From Armatimonadota bacterium (lineage in GTDB: Bacteria > Armatimonadota > SYMT01): DNA of 18,373 nucleotides. The notes beneath the pieces were generated by a model. That model was not told the origin of the DNA. It was given only the letters and a program-made list of their open reading frames with translations, and ran no database searches. Position numbers and translations under genes: made by a program. The stretch spans positions 1 through 18,373 of the forward strand of contig JBKBRF010000078.1 in NCBI GenBank assembly GCA_046292385.1, read 5' to 3'. Each line of letters opens with the position of its first letter. The stretch's first letter is position 1. Below, one piece after another: positions 1 through 15,057 of the stretch.

Positions 1-1101
1 CGGGGTGCGCCGGAAGAGCCGCTTCACGCCGATGTCCATCGGCAGGTTGAGCGAGAGGGTGCCGACGTTCGGCACGTTGTGGCAGGTGGAGCAGGTCGCC
101 ACCACGTTGTTGCTGCCGATCACGTCGTTAAAGCCGGGCACGTCGGAGACGATGAACTCGCGGCCGTTGAAGATCTGCTCCCCACGCGCGATGAGCCGCC
201 GGTTGCCTTTCAGGCCCTTTGCTGACTTCGGCAGCTTCCGCCAGCTCTTGAACAGGTTGAAGACTTCCGGCTTGAAGCGAGACTTCTTCCCGCCGGCGAA
301 CGGGGAGTTCATCCCCTCCACGAAGCGCGTCTTGGTGAGCGACTTCGGCCCCGCCTTCTTGCCGAGCTTTCCGACGACGGCGCTCTGCGTCTGGGCGGTG
401 AAGAGACCGGCTTCGAAGTCGACGATCTGCGCCACTTCCTCGTCGGTCAGCGGCACGGTGCCCTGGCTGTGCCCCTTGTGGGCGCCCTGTGCCTGGCTGG
501 CGAGGTTCTGCGCCAGGGTGGCGCCGGGGTGGGTCTCCCGACCGTCCCACATGATGGTGCTGTTGAAGCGCAGGTTGGTGGCCGGAAGGCAGCGGCGGAA
601 CAGGGAGAGCTCCGCGGCGCCGGCGTAGCCGTACGGGTCGTCCGCGTGCTCCAGCGTGAACTCAGCGTCCTCCGGGATCGGCAGGCCGATCCGGAAGACA
701 CCCCGCTGCAGCAGCATGCTGTACGCGGTCCGGCGGGCCGCTACCGTGCTGGTGTCGGCAAGCGGCGAGTTGGCGCCGTCGTGCGCGCGGAAGACCGGGT
801 CCAGGCCGCCGGAGGCTTCGAAGCGCGCCTGCAGCCGCGCGGGGGTGGTGGTCCAGCCGTCCGCCGGGTCATGACAGCTCGAGCAGGCGCGGCCGTTCGT
901 CCCGGTGCTCCGGAAGAACGGGTGCTGCAGGTCGAGCGGACCGCGGGTGGAAAGGGTCGTCGCCACTCCGGAGGGGTTCTCCGAGGAGACCTTGTGGACG
1001 CGCGGCCGGGCGGCCGCCCCCAGGGTGAGGGCGGCTACCATCGCGCCGGCCACGGCCAGCACCAGCGGAGGGCGGGGATTGCGAGTGGTTCGGTTCGTCA
1101 T
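1..1101 (-). CDS. Exported di-heme cytochrome c peroxidase/MauG-family protein (3' end lies beyond the left edge)
   Basis: Not in the ORF track because it has no stop in the window. Translated by hand from ATG at 1101 (RBS-like GGAGACGAGG upstream), open to base 1. It has an N-terminal signal peptide (MTNRTTRNPRPPLVLAVAGAMVAALTLGAAA), two heme-binding motifs CSSCH (871-885) and CSTCH (79-93), the family motif RRCLPATNL...MWDGRE, and ARGEQIF before heme 2. Confidence 0.88.
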   Translation of the reverse strand, partial: MTNRTTRNPRPPLVLAVAGAMVAALTLGAAARPRVHKVSSENPSGVATTLSTRGPLDLQHPFFRSTGTNGRACSSCHDPADGWTTTPARLQARFEASGGLDPVFRAHDGANSPLADTSTVAARRTAYSMLLQRGVFRIGLPIPEDAEFTLEHADDPYGYAGAAELSLFRRCLPATNLRFNSTIMWDGRETHPGATLAQNLASQAQGAHKGHSQGTVPLTDEEVAQIVDFEAGLFTAQTQSAVVGKLGKKAGPKSLTKTRFVEGMNSPFAGGKKSRFKPEVFNLFKSWRKLPKSAKGLKGNRRLIARGEQIFNGREFIVSDVPGFNDVIGSNNVVATCSTCHNVPNVGTLSLNLPMDIGVKRLFRRTP

Positions 1102-1121
1102 CGCCTCGTCTCCCGCGCGCG

Positions 1122-1826
1122 TTAGATGGTGACCGGCAGCCGGAGCGTGTTGTTGTCCATGTCGCTCTCCAGCAGGATGCCGCCGGGGTTGATCTCGATT
1201 TCCAGGGTGTAGTTGCCGGAGGGAAGAGTGGTCACGTCGATCGCCTGCCCGTCCCGGTTCTCGCTGTAGATATCGGCCCAGCCGATGGAAAGGCCTACGG
1301 TAATCTTCTTCTGTTTGCGGCCGGCGGGACAGGAGCGGTACTTCCCGTTGAAGTTCACGCCCTGCATCTGCGGCCGCGCCAGCATGACGTCGACCGTGCA
1401 GAACGAGATCTTGGTCGTCGCCATCACCTGCGAGCCGCTCGCGTCGAGGAGCCGGTACTCCGCCAGCGTCAGCACGTCCCACTTCCGCTTGTCCCGGTTG
1501 TACACGAATTCGCCGACGGGGCGGTTGATGCGGCGGGAAGTCCCTTGCTTCTTGATCTTCTGCACGGCCTTGAGGCGGGACTTCTTCTTCCCTGCCTTGC
1601 CGGTCACCGTCAGGTCGCCATCCCCCACGTTGATCATGCCGGCGCTGAAGCGGAGCAGCTTGCGGCCGTTCACCTGCTCCACGAAGTAGTTCCGGCCGGA
1701 GCCTTCCCAGGGGATCAGGTCCGGGTACTGCGGCCGTTGACCCTGGCCGGAAGCGGGCGCCAGCAGGGCGGCGCTCGCCAACAGAGAGCACAGTATCGTC
1801 GGGAAGAGCTTCTTCTTGATTTCCAT
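1122..1826 (-). CDS. Exported lysyl-oxidase-family (LOX-fold) protein lacking the copper-binding histidines, 234 aa
   Basis: C-terminal part of track ORF 1122..2708; the probable start is ATG at 1826 (GGAGA upstream). Signal peptide MEIKKKLFPTILCSLLASAALLAPASG. LOX motifs in order: PDL, LRFS..INVG, EYRLLD, KISFC, GLSIGWADIY, GQAIDVT.LPSGNY.L...INP, ESD..NN. Confidence 0.85.
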   Translation of the reverse strand: MEIKKKLFPTILCSLLASAALLAPASGQGQRPQYPDLIPWEGSGRNYFVEQVNGRKLLRFSAGMINVGDGDLTVTGKAGKKKSRLKAVQKIKKQGTSRRINRPVGEFVYNRDKRKWDVLTLAEYRLLDASGSQVMATTKISFCTVDVMLARPQMQGVNFNGKYRSCPAGRKQKKITVGLSIGWADIYSENRDGQAIDVTTLPSGNYTLEIEINPGGILLESDMDNNTLRLPVTI

Positions 1827-1993
1827 CGCACGTTCTCCGCGGCGGGGGAAAGGCCCGGCAGCTCGTCCGTCCTGGCGCACTGCGACGTGACAGTGGCCTG
1901 GACCGGTAGGGCTTGCCCGGCAAGCGCCGCCACCCCGTAATACCGGGCGGTTCCCAGGCTTAAACGGGACGGTGCGAAAAAGTGCGTGACTGC

Positions 1994-3043
1994 CTAGAGA
2001 CCCAGCAAGCCCGCGGCGGCGTTGTGGAAGCGGCGCCGGAAGCGGAGGAAGTCGGCGGCGTCCCGGTCCTGGTAGACGCGGTTGGTGAGCAGCAGGATTC
2101 CGAGGCGGAGTGAGGGGCTCAGGAGCAGGCTGGTGCCGGTGAAGCCGGTGTGGCCGAAGGTATCCGGCGGCAGGAAGTCGCCGGCGGGCAGGAAGCCGTT
2201 GGGGCGGGTGAACCAGCCGAGGGTGTGGCCGTTGAGTCCGGGCGGGTTCTGGTTGCGCGCCATCTCCCGCGCGGCGAGCGGCGCGAGCACCCGGGTGGCG
2301 CCGGCGGCGCCTTCGTTCAGCAGCATCTCCGAATATCGCTGGAGGTCGTCCAGCGTGCCGAACAGCCCCGCGTGTCCGGCCACGCCGCCCAGGGCGTCGC
2401 AGTTGCCGTCGTGCACTTCGCCGACCAGCGACCACCCCCGGTCGGCGCACCGGGTGGCGGCGAGGCGCGGGCGCCACTCGGCGGGGGGAGTGAAGGCGGT
2501 GTCGGTCATCTCGAGCGGCGCGAAGATCCGCTCGCGGGCGAGCTGCGCCACGGAGTAGCCGGCGAGGGTGCGGACCACCTCCCCGAGCAGGATGTAGCCG
2601 AGGTCGCTGTAGGCGTACGCCTCCCCCGGCTCCGCCTGCCGCCCCGAGGCGGCGATCCTCCGCAGGATCTCGTCCGGCGACAGCGCCTGCGAGTGGTACT
2701 GTTCCCACGGCTTCAGCCCGGAGGTGTGCGTGAGACAGTGCCGCAGGGTGATCCCCGGCACCGGCGGAAGGTCGGCGGGCAGGTAGCGGGCGACCTCTTC
2801 GTTCAGGTGCAGCCGACCCTCCTGCGCCAGGATCAGCACGGAGGTGGCGGTGGCGACCGGCTTGGTGAGCGAGGCGAGATCCCAGATGGTGCCCGGGGTG
2901 ACCGCCGCCTGTGCCTCGGGGTCGGCGAGGCCGGTTACCCCTTCGCCCAGGATCTCGCCATCCGCGCGAAAGACGCGGAACGAGGCGCCGGGGTAGAGCC
3001 CCTGGCTGCGTCCTTCCTCCAGCATCTCTTGCAGGCGCTGCAT
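1994..3043 (-). CDS. Beta-lactamase-fold serine hydrolase (AmpC/esterase VIII; NamA/AmiE-like)
   Basis: SxxK (ASLTK), LTHTSG, YxN-like YSDLGY, GEVHDGN, AGHAGLF, GHTGFTG and LLTNR motifs. No obvious signal peptide. Confidence 0.92.
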   Translation of the reverse strand: MQRLQEMLEEGRSQGLYPGASFRVFRADGEILGEGVTGLADPEAQAAVTPGTIWDLASLTKPVATATSVLILAQEGRLHLNEEVARYLPADLPPVPGITLRHCLTHTSGLKPWEQYHSQALSPDEILRRIAASGRQAEPGEAYAYSDLGYILLGEVVRTLAGYSVAQLARERIFAPLEMTDTAFTPPAEWRPRLAATRCADRGWSLVGEVHDGNCDALGGVAGHAGLFGTLDDLQRYSEMLLNEGAAGATRVLAPLAAREMARNQNPPGLNGHTLGWFTRPNGFLPAGDFLPPDTFGHTGFTGTSLLLSPSLRLGILLLTNRVYQDRDAADFLRFRRRFHNAAAGLLGL

Positions 3044-3060: not shown

Positions 3061-4302
3061 CTACTTCGTCGAGGCGGTGCGGGCCACGCGGGACTTCAGC
3101 GACTTCAGGTAGGCGTCGTTCGTCCCGGCCTTCGTGACGGCAGTGTAGCTGAAGAGCACCCAGCCTTTACCGCTCCGGCCGCGCACCGCGTCGACCTTGA
3201 GCGCGGCGCGGTCCGGCCCGAAGAGATACGCGGCGATGCCGAACCAGACCGGGAAGTCCGGATGGTCGCGGGTGACGCCGTTCGCCCACGTCTGGAAGCT
3301 GGGGAGGTCGGCGTGATAGGTCATCGGGCAGACGGCGTCGACCAGCCCCTCGCGGATCCAGCCGTACCAGTCCTGCCCCACCACGTTGTAGGCGTCCGAC
3401 TTCTTGAAGTCGCCGGAAAAGCGGCCCCACGCAATCACTGCAGCGCTGAGCATCGCCTCCGGACGGGCAGAGCGCACCGCCGTGCGGACCTCCCGCACCA
3501 GCGCGGTTACCTGGTCGCGCCGGAACTGCTTCCAGCTCCAGGCATAGCCCGTCGGAAGCCCGGTGCGCCCCTTCTTCTTGAGCGCGGCCAGCTTCTCCGG
3601 CGCCACCTTTCCCGCCAGCGACTCTTCGAGTCGGGCCAGGCAGCCGTTACAGTAGCAGAGCTTCCCGTCGGCGTAGCGGATGTAGTCGAGGTGGATGCCG
3701 TCCACGTCGTACCTCGCCGCGATGTCCGCGCAGACCTGCGCCAGGTGCCGCCGCGCCTCCGGGTTGCCGGGGCAGATGAAGACTTCCTTGTCGCCGATGG
3801 TGCAGCGGCGGCCGGTGGGTCCCACCGCCAGCCAGTCGCGGTGGGCGTTCACCAGGTGGGACGGATCGGCGGGCGGCTTGCTGTCGCCCCAGACGTAGCA
3901 AGCGTTCACCCAGGCGTGGACCTGGAGCCCGGCCGCGCGTCCCTCCTCGATGACCCGCGCGAGTGGGTCGAATCCCGCGGGTGCCTTCGCCAGTGCCGGT
4001 GCCCGCGGCTCCAGGGTGCTCTGGTAGTAGGCATCGGCCCGGCCGCGGCACTGCACGAACAGCGTGTTGATCCCATTCGCCTGGGCGTGCTTCACCACCC
4101 GGCTCACGGCCTGCGGCGTGGTGAGGTCGCTCCGTACCACCCACATCCCGCGCACCTCGTCCGGAATCCGCTCGGCAACCGCCGGCGGGGCCGGGGGCTC
4201 CGCGCTCGGACCGGCGGGCGCCACCCGCGGCGAGAGCAGCAGCGCGAGCCCGGCAGCGAGGGAAAGGGGAGCGAGGGCGAGGATGCGGCGACGGAACAGC
4301 AA
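3061..4302 (-). CDS. Exported GHL10 (YddW/DigH-like, UPF0748) glycoside hydrolase
   Basis: TTG start with AGGAGG RBS and a signal peptide. Motifs EVRGMWV, INTLFVQ.RGRADAYY, FDPL, GLQVHAWVN, YDVDGIHLDYIRY, GQDW..W...G.VD...PM.Y. Confidence 0.9.
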   Translation of the reverse strand: MLFRRRILALAPLSLAAGLALLLSPRVAPAGPSAEPPAPPAVAERIPDEVRGMWVVRSDLTTPQAVSRVVKHAQANGINTLFVQCRGRADAYYQSTLEPRAPALAKAPAGFDPLARVIEEGRAAGLQVHAWVNACYVWGDSKPPADPSHLVNAHRDWLAVGPTGRRCTIGDKEVFICPGNPEARRHLAQVCADIAARYDVDGIHLDYIRYADGKLCYCNGCLARLEESLAGKVAPEKLAALKKKGRTGLPTGYAWSWKQFRRDQVTALVREVRTAVRSARPEAMLSAAVIAWGRFSGDFKKSDAYNVVGQDWYGWIREGLVDAVCPMTYHADLPSFQTWANGVTRDHPDFPVWFGIAAYLFGPDRAALKVDAVRGRSGKGWVLFSYTAVTKAGTNDAYLKSLKSRVARTASTK

Positions 4303-8461: not shown

Positions 8462-9289
8462 ATGTCCAGATCCGAAAGAAGAGGGTTCACCCTCATCGAG
8501 TTGTTGGTTGTTATCGCGATCATCGCGATACTTGCCGCCATCCTGTTCCCGGTCTTTGCACAGGCACGCGAGAAGGCGCGCTCCATCGGCTGTCTCAGCA
8601 ATGCGAAGCAGATGGGCACCGCGCTCCAGATGTACACGCAAGACTACGATGAGATGCTGGTGCCGTGGAACGCCCGGTTGGTCGCTCGCCTGGCGAACTG
8701 GGATCAGCCCCTCTACTACTGGGACTCGCTGCTGCAGCCCTATGTGAAGAGCGGCGCGCCCGACCGCCCGGTCGGACAGGCGGTGTTCGGCGGTGTGTGG
8801 CGCTGCCCTTCCACCCGTAATGCGGCCAGTTATCGCAGCTACGGATACAGCCAGTCGCTGATGTATGGTCCGTGGCCGCTGCAGAATGGGGTGAGCTACT
8901 ACCGCGCCGTTTCGCTAGCGGTACTGGACGCCCCGGCGCAGACCGTATTCGTGGGAGACGGCGGCCGCTTCGGCCGTCTCGCGCCGCCGTTCTGGGGCCA
9001 GACTTCCTTTGATCGCGGCGGAACTACCTCAAAGGTTCCGAACCCGGGGGTCGGGTCCACCTCATCCAGCTCTCTCGGAAACAATGGCTGGGAGTGGCCG
9101 GACATCCACAACGGCGGAGCCAACTACGTCTTCTGTGACGGCCACGCCAAGTGGATGAAGGCAGAGGTGGCCTTTCCACCCGGCATGAACGCGGTGCGCC
9201 GCATCGGAAAGCCCGCCTACAAGGCTTGCGCCGACTACTTCGCGGCGACCGCGGACGAGCGCGCGTGGTGCCTGTCGCTGTCGCGTTAG
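8462..9289 (+). CDS. DUF1559 / prepilin-type N-terminal cleavage-methylation domain protein with H-X9-DG motif
   Basis: [35 protein letters not shown]...CLSN.KQ...MY.QDYDE, WRCPS, and [16 protein letters not shown]. Confidence 0.95.
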
Positions 9290-13508: not shown

Positions 13509-14300
13509 ATGCCGTCGCCGTTTCCTGGAATGGACCCGTATCTGGAGCAGGGCTCCGGCAGGCACTCGTTCCATACGCGGCTCGTCACCGGCATCGCGGA
13601 TGCGATCGAGCCGCTGCTGCCGCCCGGCTATTACGTCTCCGTCGAGGAGCGCACGTACATCGCCTTGCCGGACGGCGCCGAGCTTCAGCGCATCCCGGAC
13701 GTCGTCGTGGTGAGCCCCACGCCGCCGGGGGCGGAGGCGGGGTCCGGCGTCGGCGTGCTCCCGCGCTCGTATGAAGTGCTGGTTCCGGCTCCGGACCGGC
13801 TGCGGGAGCGCTACCTGGAGATCCGCGAGCTCGGCGGCTCCGAGCCGGTAGTGACGGTCCTTGAGGTGCTCTCTCCGACCAACAAGCGGCCCGGCCCCTG
13901 CCGCGACGACTACCTGGAGAAGCGCGGAGCGGTCCTGGCCAGCCGGAGCCACCGGGTGGAAGTCGATCTCCTGCGCCAGGGACCGCGGATGCCGGCGCTG
14001 GGAACGCCGGAAGGATGGGACTACAGCATTCTCGTGAGCCGCGCGGAGCGCCGGCCTGCCGCCGAGCTGGTCCCGTTCAGCGTGCGCGAGCCGTTTCCGC
14101 CGCTGCCGATCCCGCTCCATCCGGGGCAGCCCGAGCCGCGCGTCGACCTCGGCGCCGTCTTCACGCAGGTCTACGACCGCGGCCGCTATGCCGCGCGGGT
14201 AGACTACTCCCGTCCCCCCGATCCGGTGCTGGAGAGCGAGGACGCTGCCTGGGCGGCGGGGTTGCTGGCGGAGGTGCGGATGCCGGGCCTGGACCAGTAG
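13509..14300 (+). CDS. DUF4058 family protein (PD-(D/E)xK nuclease-like), copy 1
   Basis: GGAGG RBS. Motifs MPSPFPGMDPYLE, IPDV, ERYLEIR, LEVLSPTNKR, VEVDLLR, and DY..PP.P. Confidence 0.93.
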   Translation: MPSPFPGMDPYLEQGSGRHSFHTRLVTGIADAIEPLLPPGYYVSVEERTYIALPDGAELQRIPDVVVVSPTPPGAEAGSGVGVLPRSYEVLVPAPDRLRERYLEIRELGGSEPVVTVLEVLSPTNKRPGPCRDDYLEKRGAVLASRSHRVEVDLLRQGPRMPALGTPEGWDYSILVSRAERRPAAELVPFSVREPFPPLPIPLHPGQPEPRVDLGAVFTQVYDRGRYAARVDYSRPPDPVLESEDAAWAAGLLAEVRMPGLDQ

Positions 14301-14310
14301 GAGAAATCCG

Positions 14311-15057
14311 ATGCCGTCTCCGTTCCCTGGAATGGACCCGAATCTGGAGCAGCGCGGCGTGTGGCGCTCGCTACGCGCGCACCTGCTGGTGAGTATGGCG
14401 AACCGGATACAGCGGGAGGTTGATCCGCGCTACTGGGTGTCGGTGGAAGAGATCCTGTATCACGCCGTTCCGGATGAGGAATTCCTGCTTGGAAGTCGGC
14501 GGGCGAGTGTGCTGGCAAGTGTCGCCGCAGAATCTCGTCCCGTCGAGGTGGCGGTGCCGGTGCCGGAGGAGGTCCGGGAGCGGTACCTGGAGATCAAGGA
14601 GCCCCGCACTGGAGAAGTGATCACCGCGATCGGGCTGCTCTCGCCGAGCAACAAGCGCCCGGGGCCTGGCCGTGAGGCTTATCTCCGGAAGCGCGAAGCG
14701 ATCCTGGGCAGCCGGACAAATCTGGTAGAGATCGACCTGCTGCGAGACGGGGAGCGAATGCCGGTGCTGCGAGCGCCGTCCGGCTACGATTACAGCGTCC
14801 TGATCCACCGCTCGACGCGTGCGGCACGGGCTGCTCTCTACCCGTTCACGCTGCGTGAGGCTGCGCCCACGGTCCCGATCCCGCTGCGGCCGGGGGAAGC
14901 AGAGCCGACGATCGACCTCGCCGCGCTGTTGGTGGAGGTCTACGACGCCGGCGGCTTCTCCCTGATCCTCGACTACTCTGCCCCGCCGAATCCGCCGCTC
15001 CCGCCGGACGACGAGGCCTGGGCAGACGCGCTTCTTCGCGAGCGAGGTCTGCGATAA
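14311..15057 (+). CDS. DUF4058 family protein, copy 2 (motifs degenerate)
   Basis: MPSPFPGMDPNLE, ERYLEIK, IGLLSPSNKR, LVEIDLLR. Starts 10 bp after copy 1. Confidence 0.88.
   Translation: MPSPFPGMDPNLEQRGVWRSLRAHLLVSMANRIQREVDPRYWVSVEEILYHAVPDEEFLLGSRRASVLASVAAESRPVEVAVPVPEEVRERYLEIKEPRTGEVITAIGLLSPSNKRPGPGREAYLRKREAILGSRTNLVEIDLLRDGERMPVLRAPSGYDYSVLIHRSTRAARAALYPFTLREAAPTVPIPLRPGEAEPTIDLAALLVEVYDAGGFSLILDYSAPPNPPLPPDDEAWADALLRERGLR

Follow-up and report, generated by a model that had tools for sequence, protein, structure and literature searches.

Lysyl oxidase (LOX) activity requires a histidine "copper talon" together with the lysine and tyrosine of a lysine tyrosylquinone (LTQ) cofactor, K320 and Y355 in human LOX, and the accessible part of a survey of the family reports talon and LTQ residues as conserved in all surveyed groups except one red alga (PMC4448552). 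Formation of LTQ is described in the accessible part of PMC11951088 only as copper-dependent and autocatalytic, and that part states that mature LTQ is present in no LOX structure so far. Other proteins are modified by a separate di-heme enzyme. In the sections of these sources available to us, MbnH turns a tryptophan of MbnP into kynurenine (PMC11951088), and MauG, a Tyr-ligated enzyme of the CCP_MauG family, remotely installs a quinone cofactor, TTQ, in a separate periplasmic protein, preMADH (PMC11951088, PMC6405878). According to the same partial sources, a His-Met E heme marks the canonical bacterial cytochrome c peroxidases (bCcPs) and a His-Tyr E heme marks MauG, MbnH and BthA (PMC11892367, PMC6405878). 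Here we describe two adjacent genes in an 18,373-nucleotide stretch of DNA from an Armatimonadota bacterium (hereafter the window), one for a LOX-fold protein that has no histidine and one for a di-heme protein of the CCP_MauG family. By analogy with the systems above, the two could form a secreted maturase-substrate module of the MauG/MbnH kind, a proposal whose chances we put at about even.

A histidine-free LOX-fold gene and its di-heme neighbor

The window comprises the first 18,373 bases of contig C78 in genome G000 (7.0 Mb, 91 contigs). The LOX-fold gene (P0001; 1122..1826, minus strand, stop codon included) runs from an ATG at 1826 to a TAA at 1124-1122 and encodes 234 amino acids. Its product matches the Pfam Lysyl_oxidase domain (PF01186; 63.7 bits, E 2.3e-17, cut-off 20.4 bits), and phmmer aligns it with human LOXL2 (5ZE3; E 1e-6). 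Not one of its 234 residues is a histidine. At the former copper-talon site (residues 107-117, FVYNRDKRKWD; 1476..1508, minus strand), VYNRDKRKWD stands where relatives have HxxHxHWH, and the talon core of three essential histidines is absent. Lys139 (1410..1412, minus strand) aligns with the lysine of LOXL2 HKASFCLED and Tyr187 (1266..1268, minus strand) with the tyrosine of LOXL2 WDMY, the two LOXL2 residues that we take to be its LTQ pair. P0001 therefore has one of the two features that define a LOX and lacks the other. Like LOX and LOXL2, it keeps the Pfam domain, the LTQ lysine and tyrosine, the conserved cysteines and a C-terminal GxxDxY...NN; unlike them, with their copper- and O2-dependent self-processing, it has no copper talon.

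An exhaustive HMMER search returned 3346 relatives of P0001 at E ≤ 0.001, 20 of them at E ≤ 1e-30, and we aligned P0001 with two paralogs from the same genome and the 27 best matches. Most rows of this alignment carry H-x-x-H-x-H-W-H at one site; in the paralog at C35:38540-39241 (C35a), the corresponding FHEEHYHWH aligns residue for residue with WHDCHRHYH of LOXL2. The nearest relatives of P0001 also lack the talon histidines: P0006 (C35:42452-43147, or C35b), P0007, P0008 and a copy in a related genome, G004. The two paralogs, C35:38540-39241(-) with the His cluster and C35:42452-43147(+) without it, lie 3.2 kb apart on contig C35 (L092).

The second gene (P0002; 1..1101, minus strand) starts with an ATG at 1101-1099 and continues for 367 codons to base 1 with no stop, so that its 5′ part is present. 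Because the window begins where C78 begins, the gene is cut by the assembly and not by a stop codon. In agreement, contigs from runs X10 and X12 reach past base 1 by 346 and 248 letters, showing that the truncation comes from the assembly and is not found in nature. Judged by the length of its full-length relatives (441-451 amino acids; the G004 homolog and the paralogs on C5 and C6), P0002 probably lacks about 85-90 codons. It matches Pfam CCP_MauG (PF03150) at 34.3 bits (cut-off 25.6) and carries two heme-binding motifs, CSSCH at residues 73-77 (871..885) and CSTCH at residues 337-341 (79..93), as well as WDGR at residues 185-188 (538..549), all on the minus strand. The WDGR tryptophan probably corresponds to the family's inter-heme tryptophan, and 100 of the 119 family members among the matches listed share W[DN]GR. 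The Pfam match stretches residues 68-211 over profile positions 19-85, indicating a long insert between heme 1 and WDGR.

The genes share a strand and are separated by 20 nucleotides (CGCGCGCGGGAGACGAGGCG; 1102..1121, minus strand), a purine-rich spacer whose GGGAGA..GAGG before the second ATG looks by eye like a candidate ribosome-binding site. A contig from another, independent sequencing run of DNA (X2 record 13) spans their junction over window 952-1238 with a single mismatch. The N-termini of P0001 (MEIKKKLFPTILCSLLASAALLAPASG; 1746..1826, minus strand) and P0002 (MTNRTTRNPRPPLVLAVAGAMVAALTLGAAARPRV) are basic, then hydrophobic, then rich in small residues, and we read both by eye as predicted Sec-type signals. 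On these points the original prediction stands: it had described two co-oriented genes 20 bp apart, signal peptides on both products, LOX motifs without histidine in the first and two CxxCH motifs with WDGR in the second. A promoter and terminator scan of window 1-2300 gave no promoter-like sites and two terminator-like sites, both on the plus strand and no more than in shuffled sequences.

Contigs from RNA libraries of two studies (X10 and X12) contain pieces of both genes across window 1-1655 at about 94-98% identity. Because DNA can occur in such libraries, these pieces are no more than a weak hint and show neither transcription nor a joint transcript. In X10 they break off in mismatching letters at 1063 and 1123, which leaves the junction of that relative unreadable from X10; the relative appears to differ from the window around the junction and in the signal peptide of the heme protein.

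A second contig of G000, C90, overlaps the truncated gene. Its first 285 nucleotides are 91% identical to window 1-285, and the fragment it carries (G000:C90:1-555, L093) encodes the last 184 amino acids of a near-identical di-heme protein, with 95% identity over the shared 95 amino acids, ending in ...APYFHDGSAATLEEVVEFYYDRF... Both C78 and C90 end inside the same gene region. C90 could be either a second copy, possibly of the whole pair, or a strain variant at which the assembly broke.

Loss of the copper site and the heme neighbor across genomes

The class to which the window belongs is represented by 8 genomes. In one of them, G004 (same family, another genus), a His-less LOX-like gene with 42% identity to P0001 is followed by a homolog of the heme gene with 51% identity. 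A tblastx comparison of C78 with the G004 locus found these two genes alone in common; since the flanks of the G004 locus match other G000 contigs (C39 and C3), only the pair is shared between the two loci. G006 has two His-type LOX genes, one with no heme gene within 1.5 kb and one at a contig end. No further members of the window clade were found beyond G000, G004 and G006 among 61 genomes of relatives, 401 of the phylum and 8 of the class, and a homologous-protein search for this clade returned 3 distant matches.

To look beyond this lineage, we scanned a genome collection with an alignment of LOX-fold sequences (A1), which confirmed 296 relatives, and kept the best 80 of 296. The His cluster was missing in 8 of these 80 loci, and 7 of the 8 (the G004 locus and six Nannocystaceae-type loci) had a CCP-like gene with two CxxCH motifs downstream. 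By contrast, none of the 72 loci with the His cluster had a CCP-like gene, as judged from tblastn comparisons that used as many as five heme queries and from a search for open reading frames with at least two CxxCH motifs; this search flagged only L029, a c7/NapC-type five-heme protein, and a fragment with three CxxCH motifs at the edge of L040. Long stop-to-stop frames in L062, L068 and L083 raised the idea of a LOX-heme fusion, which we rejected: these are high-GC artefacts, and the two genes lie in different frames.

We then searched the order of G403, the Nannocystales, with Pfam PF01186 and took all 87 matches, found in 43 of 73 genomes, with 5.5-kb flanks. Ten of the 87 loci had lost the His cluster (CHGHYHF replaced by CSGSWLF, CQGSYVL, CGGGPVF and similar). 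Every one of these ten has a di-heme MbnH-type gene 0-2.2 kb downstream on the same strand, at 59-100% mutual identity, and this gene is absent from all 77 Nannocystales loci that keep the cluster. When the loci with usable flanks were pooled, a CCP_MauG neighbor was present in 12 of 14 distinct His-less loci vs 2 of 151 His-cluster loci (72 + 77 + C35a + G006:C487); the His-less exceptions are C35b and L066. The claim that His-less LOX proteins are enriched beside CCP_MauG genes, the check that could have gone against the pair, is thus borne out, and the two genes are neighbors in other genomes, both in G004 and in the ten Nannocystales loci. A metagenome scan with A1 gave 30 loci, 3 of them His-less (L094, L104, L112); these have only 43, 432 and 356 nucleotides downstream and so say nothing about a heme neighbor.

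We built a FastTree phylogeny of 194 LOX-domain rows (188 distinct). On this tree the His-less state requires 6 changes, and well-supported branches force at least 4 of these. The window clade (support 96), consisting of P0001, P0006, P0007, P0008, the G004 copy, P0017 and P0026, is nested among proteins with HxxHxHWH, and the Nannocystales His-less clade (support 99) is sister to local His-type LOX genes. As the two clades fall on opposite sides of the deepest split (support 100), their His losses are independent. The copper site was thus lost separately in these two clades, each time in association with a CCP_MauG-family neighbor, and the neighbors come from two different subfamilies.

None of the 80 genome loci or 30 metagenome loci, His-less ones included, has lost the LTQ lysine or tyrosine, and positions K139 and Y187 are retained across at least 4 independent His losses, down to about 30% identity. 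This retention bears on the idea that the His-less protein is a non-catalytic remnant, either a binding or structural module or a decaying pseudo-enzyme, in which case its link to the heme gene would be without chemical significance. All copper ligands are gone, the G004 copy has an in-frame TAG, and several His-less origins are what would be expected if the loss were easy. Against this stand the conserved lysine and tyrosine in every His-less sequence seen, as well as 69 invariant columns in the Nannocystales His-less clade, GHK and GWxDxY among them, at 54-87% identity; the pieces of both genes in the two RNA libraries are a weak hint in the same direction. We consider a remnant very improbable.

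The Nannocystales His-less proteins (L195:5090-6160 and relatives, A2) have a lipoprotein-like signal (..GC) and a long linker rich in Thr, Ser, Gly and Glu. Most end in a Cys-rich module (..DGCDCGCG..DPDC..), which is missing in L172 and L192.

The heme partners

The original prediction had left it to the C-terminus of the heme protein whether its second heme has a tyrosine, as in MauG, or a methionine, as in bCcP. The window's own C-terminus lies outside the contig, and the site can be read only in its relatives. The first tyrosine of VVEFYYDRF in C90 and of VVEFYYNRF in G004 aligns with the E-heme methionine of 1IQC (AVETMG) and 3O5C (AVNTMA), and with the tyrosine of 6E1C (IDIYSEG). The C5 and C6 paralogs also have a tyrosine at the aligned site. 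Among the 119 family members listed (P0156-P0274, about 450 amino acids), all have at least two CxxCH motifs, and 116 have FY at the ligand site within ...VV.FY..RF. On this evidence the relatives of the window heme protein are of the predicted MauG type and not the peroxide-scavenging His-Met type. P0002 shares two CxxCH motifs and WDGR with canonical bCcPs (1IQC, 3O5C), and its relatives share PYFHDGS with them; unlike these peroxidases, the relatives have Tyr in place of Met at the E-heme site, and only the C-terminal part aligns. The best solved relative of the family is 6E1C, titled "Di-heme enzyme", which we take to be MbnH, and the next ones are canonical peroxidases and MauG, aligned over the C-terminal part only. 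The names given by the sources are limited to "cytochrome c peroxidase" and "RoxA-like". Taken together, these features suggest a large, uncharacterised family of the Tyr (MauG) type whose gene neighbors vary. BthA and other orphan MauG-type enzymes resemble most of its members in having no known substrate; in the accessible part of PMC11892367, BthA is without an inter-heme Trp, whereas P0002 has WDGR and a candidate substrate next door.

The Nannocystales partner can be placed more closely. The enzyme at L195:6160-7431 scores 395.1 bits on TIGR04039 ("MbnH family di-heme enzyme"), above the cut-off of 362.85, and matches 6E1C at 4.8e-91; on the MauG equivalog TIGR03791 it scores 197.3 bits, below the cut-off of 443.85. 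All 10 Nannocystales partners have a tyrosine at the E-heme site. We searched five genomes (G403, G404, G408, G453 and G467) for MbnH and MbnP. Each of the five has at least one over-cut-off MbnH paralog placed immediately after a His-less LOX-like gene (G404:C210, G404:C163, G403:C34, G403:C162, G408:C24, G453:C33 and G467:C41). Further over-cut-off paralogs come straight after MbnP (TIGR04052) in G403, G404 and G408, for example on G404:C83, G404:C377, G403:C173, G403:C98, G408:C8 and G408:C14, so that the His-less LOX-like protein holds the slot of the known MbnH substrate. In G453, the MbnH gene beside MbnP on C20 scores 350.6 bits, slightly below the cut-off, and the profile search of G467 gave no MbnP match. 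Two more over-cut-off MbnH genes, L239:3018-4421 (G403:C136) and G404:C161:62730-63734, have neither MbnP nor a LOX-like gene before them; upstream of the first, a frame on the same strand encodes a 998-amino-acid protein with no obvious signal peptide. A complex prediction for the Nannocystales pair (A3 82-424 with A2 98-357 and two hemes), run without controls, scored 0.32, 0.19 and 0.12 against a mark of 0.32, values that speak neither for nor against binding.

The arrangement resembles MbnH-MbnP, where the tryptophan conversion builds a copper site, in several respects: the partner gene comes first and the di-heme gene second, both products are exported (a prediction in the present case), the E heme has a tyrosine, and in Nannocystales the enzyme passes the MbnH cut-off while other paralogs there follow MbnP. 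It differs in that the partner has a LOX fold and is not an MbnP (WxW) protein. The window enzyme is a distant relative of MbnH, as its homologs score only about 49 bits against the cut-off of 362.85 (49.4 bits for the G004 homolog, 49.8 for the C6 paralog), and it has the long insert between heme 1 and WDGR. Given these scores, it is not orthologous to the myxobacterial partner.

Two further sets of heme genes were seen beside LOX-fold genes. Two orthologous loci with the His cluster, L162:5459-7777(+) and L175:3266-5995(-), have a divergent CCP_MauG gene (E 2.4e-8) with EHY at the E-heme site and a distant likeness to the window's heme family (25% identity to the C6 paralog), by its sequence a third subfamily beside a LOX-fold gene. 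In 5 of the 10 His-less Nannocystales loci, a gene of about 610 amino acids with five CxxCH motifs lies between the LOX-like and MbnH genes (L150:6100-8061, L151:3441-5324, L170:2297-4120, L212:6211-8052 and L213:3430-5340). It has a weak Pfam Cytochrome_C554 match and no NCBIfam match, and its tail is rich in Gly and Ser, hydrophobic and rich in Arg.

Canonical LOX makes H2O2, and enzymes of the bCcP family consume it. The pair could then be a functional oxidase/peroxidase couple in which the heme enzyme removes or uses the H2O2 of the LOX protein, or relays electrons, with no maturation involved; the match between this output and this use speaks for such a couple, and the five-heme cytochrome gene between the two genes in half of the Nannocystales loci hints at electron transfer. 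However, His-cluster LOX genes, the expected makers of H2O2, are rarely paired (0 of 72 and 2 of 77), and for a LOX fold that has no copper ligands we know of no route to its cofactor. G000 also encodes a canonical CCP elsewhere (C5:70932-71396, 179 bits), so that peroxide scavenging does not need the P0002 gene. Moreover, the accessible part of PMC11892367 associates a tyrosine at the E-heme site with enzymes that are poor peroxidases. Since His-type LOX is almost never paired and the E-heme site is a tyrosine, an oxidase/peroxidase couple is disfavored, and we regard it as quite improbable.

Proposed maturation by a heme enzyme in place of copper

A more serious possibility is that the two genes of the window lineage sit together by chance or inheritance, that the di-heme family has an unrelated function of its own (on a small molecule or another protein), and that the myxobacterial pairs are a separate story. 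The following findings count against a maturase-substrate module; the size of the heme family, its mostly LOX-free neighborhoods, its distance from MbnH, the unpaired C35b and the few contrasts also count in favor of chance adjacency. The P0002 family is very large, with 3464 proteins at E ≤ 1e-10 among 8000 candidates scored. Of 14 loci of this family in the window's taxonomic family (from 16 matches, leaving out the window's own and the C90 fragment), 12 have other, heterogeneous neighbors, and no LOX gene lies near the G000 paralogs on C5 and C6. Support is moderate (89) for the group that the two LOX-linked, window-type heme genes form with G000_C5 and P0168. P0002 itself gave no match to TIGR04039 at E ≤ 1 and scores 12.4 bits on TIGR03791, and its own C-terminus, as noted, falls outside the window. 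Unpaired His-less genes exist as well: no CCP_MauG gene was found on the contig that C35b, the paralog nearest to P0001, shares with the other LOX paralog, and the actinobacterial L066 has none within 5 kb. Conversely, 2 of the 77 His-cluster Nannocystales loci (L162 and L175, from two genomes) have the divergent CCP_MauG gene about 0.6 kb downstream, meaning that a heme neighbor is not confined to His-less forms. The phylogeny offers no more than 3 independent contrasts; heme presence points in the same direction in 1-2 of them and does not differ in 1-2, a sign test yields p 0.5, and significance is unreachable with 3 contrasts. Finally, the G004 LOX-like gene (L004:1495-2250(-), the same as L010:1537-2154, on G004:C173) has a single in-frame TAG, exactly at the former His-cluster site (GQCV*EKERLHW), with the remaining frame intact. 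The contig name gives about 4x coverage, at which the TAG could be an error; it may be this or the mark of a young pseudogene.

Even so, chance adjacency sits poorly with the 20-nucleotide spacer on one strand and with a pair that persists between genera (42-51% protein identity) although the flanks on either side are not the same. Nor does it account easily for two CCP_MauG subfamilies following independently His-less LOX-fold genes, with a third, divergent one in L162 and L175. We therefore consider it unlikely. The rest of the window is housekeeping or unrelated, with a beta-lactamase-family gene (1994-3043), GHL10 (3061-4302), and genes for Hfq, DapF, an M20 peptidase, MetH, ThiF/rhodanese, two tandem DUF4058 proteins and an N_methyl/DUF1559 protein. 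The N_methyl/DUF1559 protein and the tandem DUF4058 genes lie at 8462-9289(+) and 13509-15057(+); the former is of a kind that we take to be typical of Planctomycetota.

The separate origin of the same pairing in myxobacteria suggests that the heme enzyme modifies the LOX-fold protein in place of copper. This was the core of the original prediction, and it has gained from the association in two independent His-less clades and from the MbnH partner in Nannocystales; the unpaired C35b and L066, a heme family mostly unlinked to LOX and the small number of contrasts are what it has to set against these gains. In such a module, the di-heme enzyme would react with H2O2 to give a high-valent (bis-Fe(IV)-type) oxidant, and long-range hole transfer would carry out the oxidation that copper and O2 perform in canonical LOX. 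In what we see as the most likely chemistry, oxidation would turn Tyr187 into a quinone, Lys139 would be captured by it, and the resulting LTQ-like cofactor would make the protein a copper-independent, amine-oxidising quinoprotein. Less likely, another residue would be oxidised, for example Trp116 at the former copper site, yielding a new redox or metal site; by analogy with MbnP, a Trp-derived product is a live alternative.

Maturation of the LOX-fold protein by its heme neighbor would parallel MauG and preMADH, in which a Tyr-ligated CCP_MauG enzyme likewise acts remotely on a separate periplasmic protein; the substrate residues there are two tryptophans, whereas a tyrosine and a lysine are proposed here, and no mau genes were seen. 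More tentatively, and less likely than not, this could be a second, enzyme-assisted route to a tyrosine-derived quinone, in which MauG/MbnH-type enzymes make LTQ or a new Lys/Tyr cofactor in LOX-fold proteins that have no copper. Such a route would have evolved at least twice, with an MbnH paralog in Nannocystales and with a member of the large Tyr-type di-heme family in the window lineage. MbnP is absent from G000 by a profile search of the genome. We found no link between the LOX fold and di-heme enzymes in the literature searched, a scope outside which the primary MbnH and MbnP papers and their supplements lie; the word "lysyl" is absent from the main body of the sequence similarity network paper PMC6405878, and neighborhood tables may hold an earlier mention.

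We rate the pair as a candidate case of MauG/MbnH-type protein maturation with a new substrate fold. If so, LOX-like proteins would be a third class of substrate for remote oxidation by MauG-type enzymes, after preMADH and MbnP, and the exchange of MbnP for a LOX-like partner within single genomes would be a natural experiment on substrate choice. If the cofactor is made by a separate enzyme, biogenesis would be separated from catalysis, and LTQ chemistry would become tractable in a small bacterial protein. For the heme family, with its several thousand Tyr-type proteins annotated only as "cytochrome c peroxidase", the pair would provide a first clue to function, and this large family would be a reservoir of protein-modifying enzymes whose partners are unknown.

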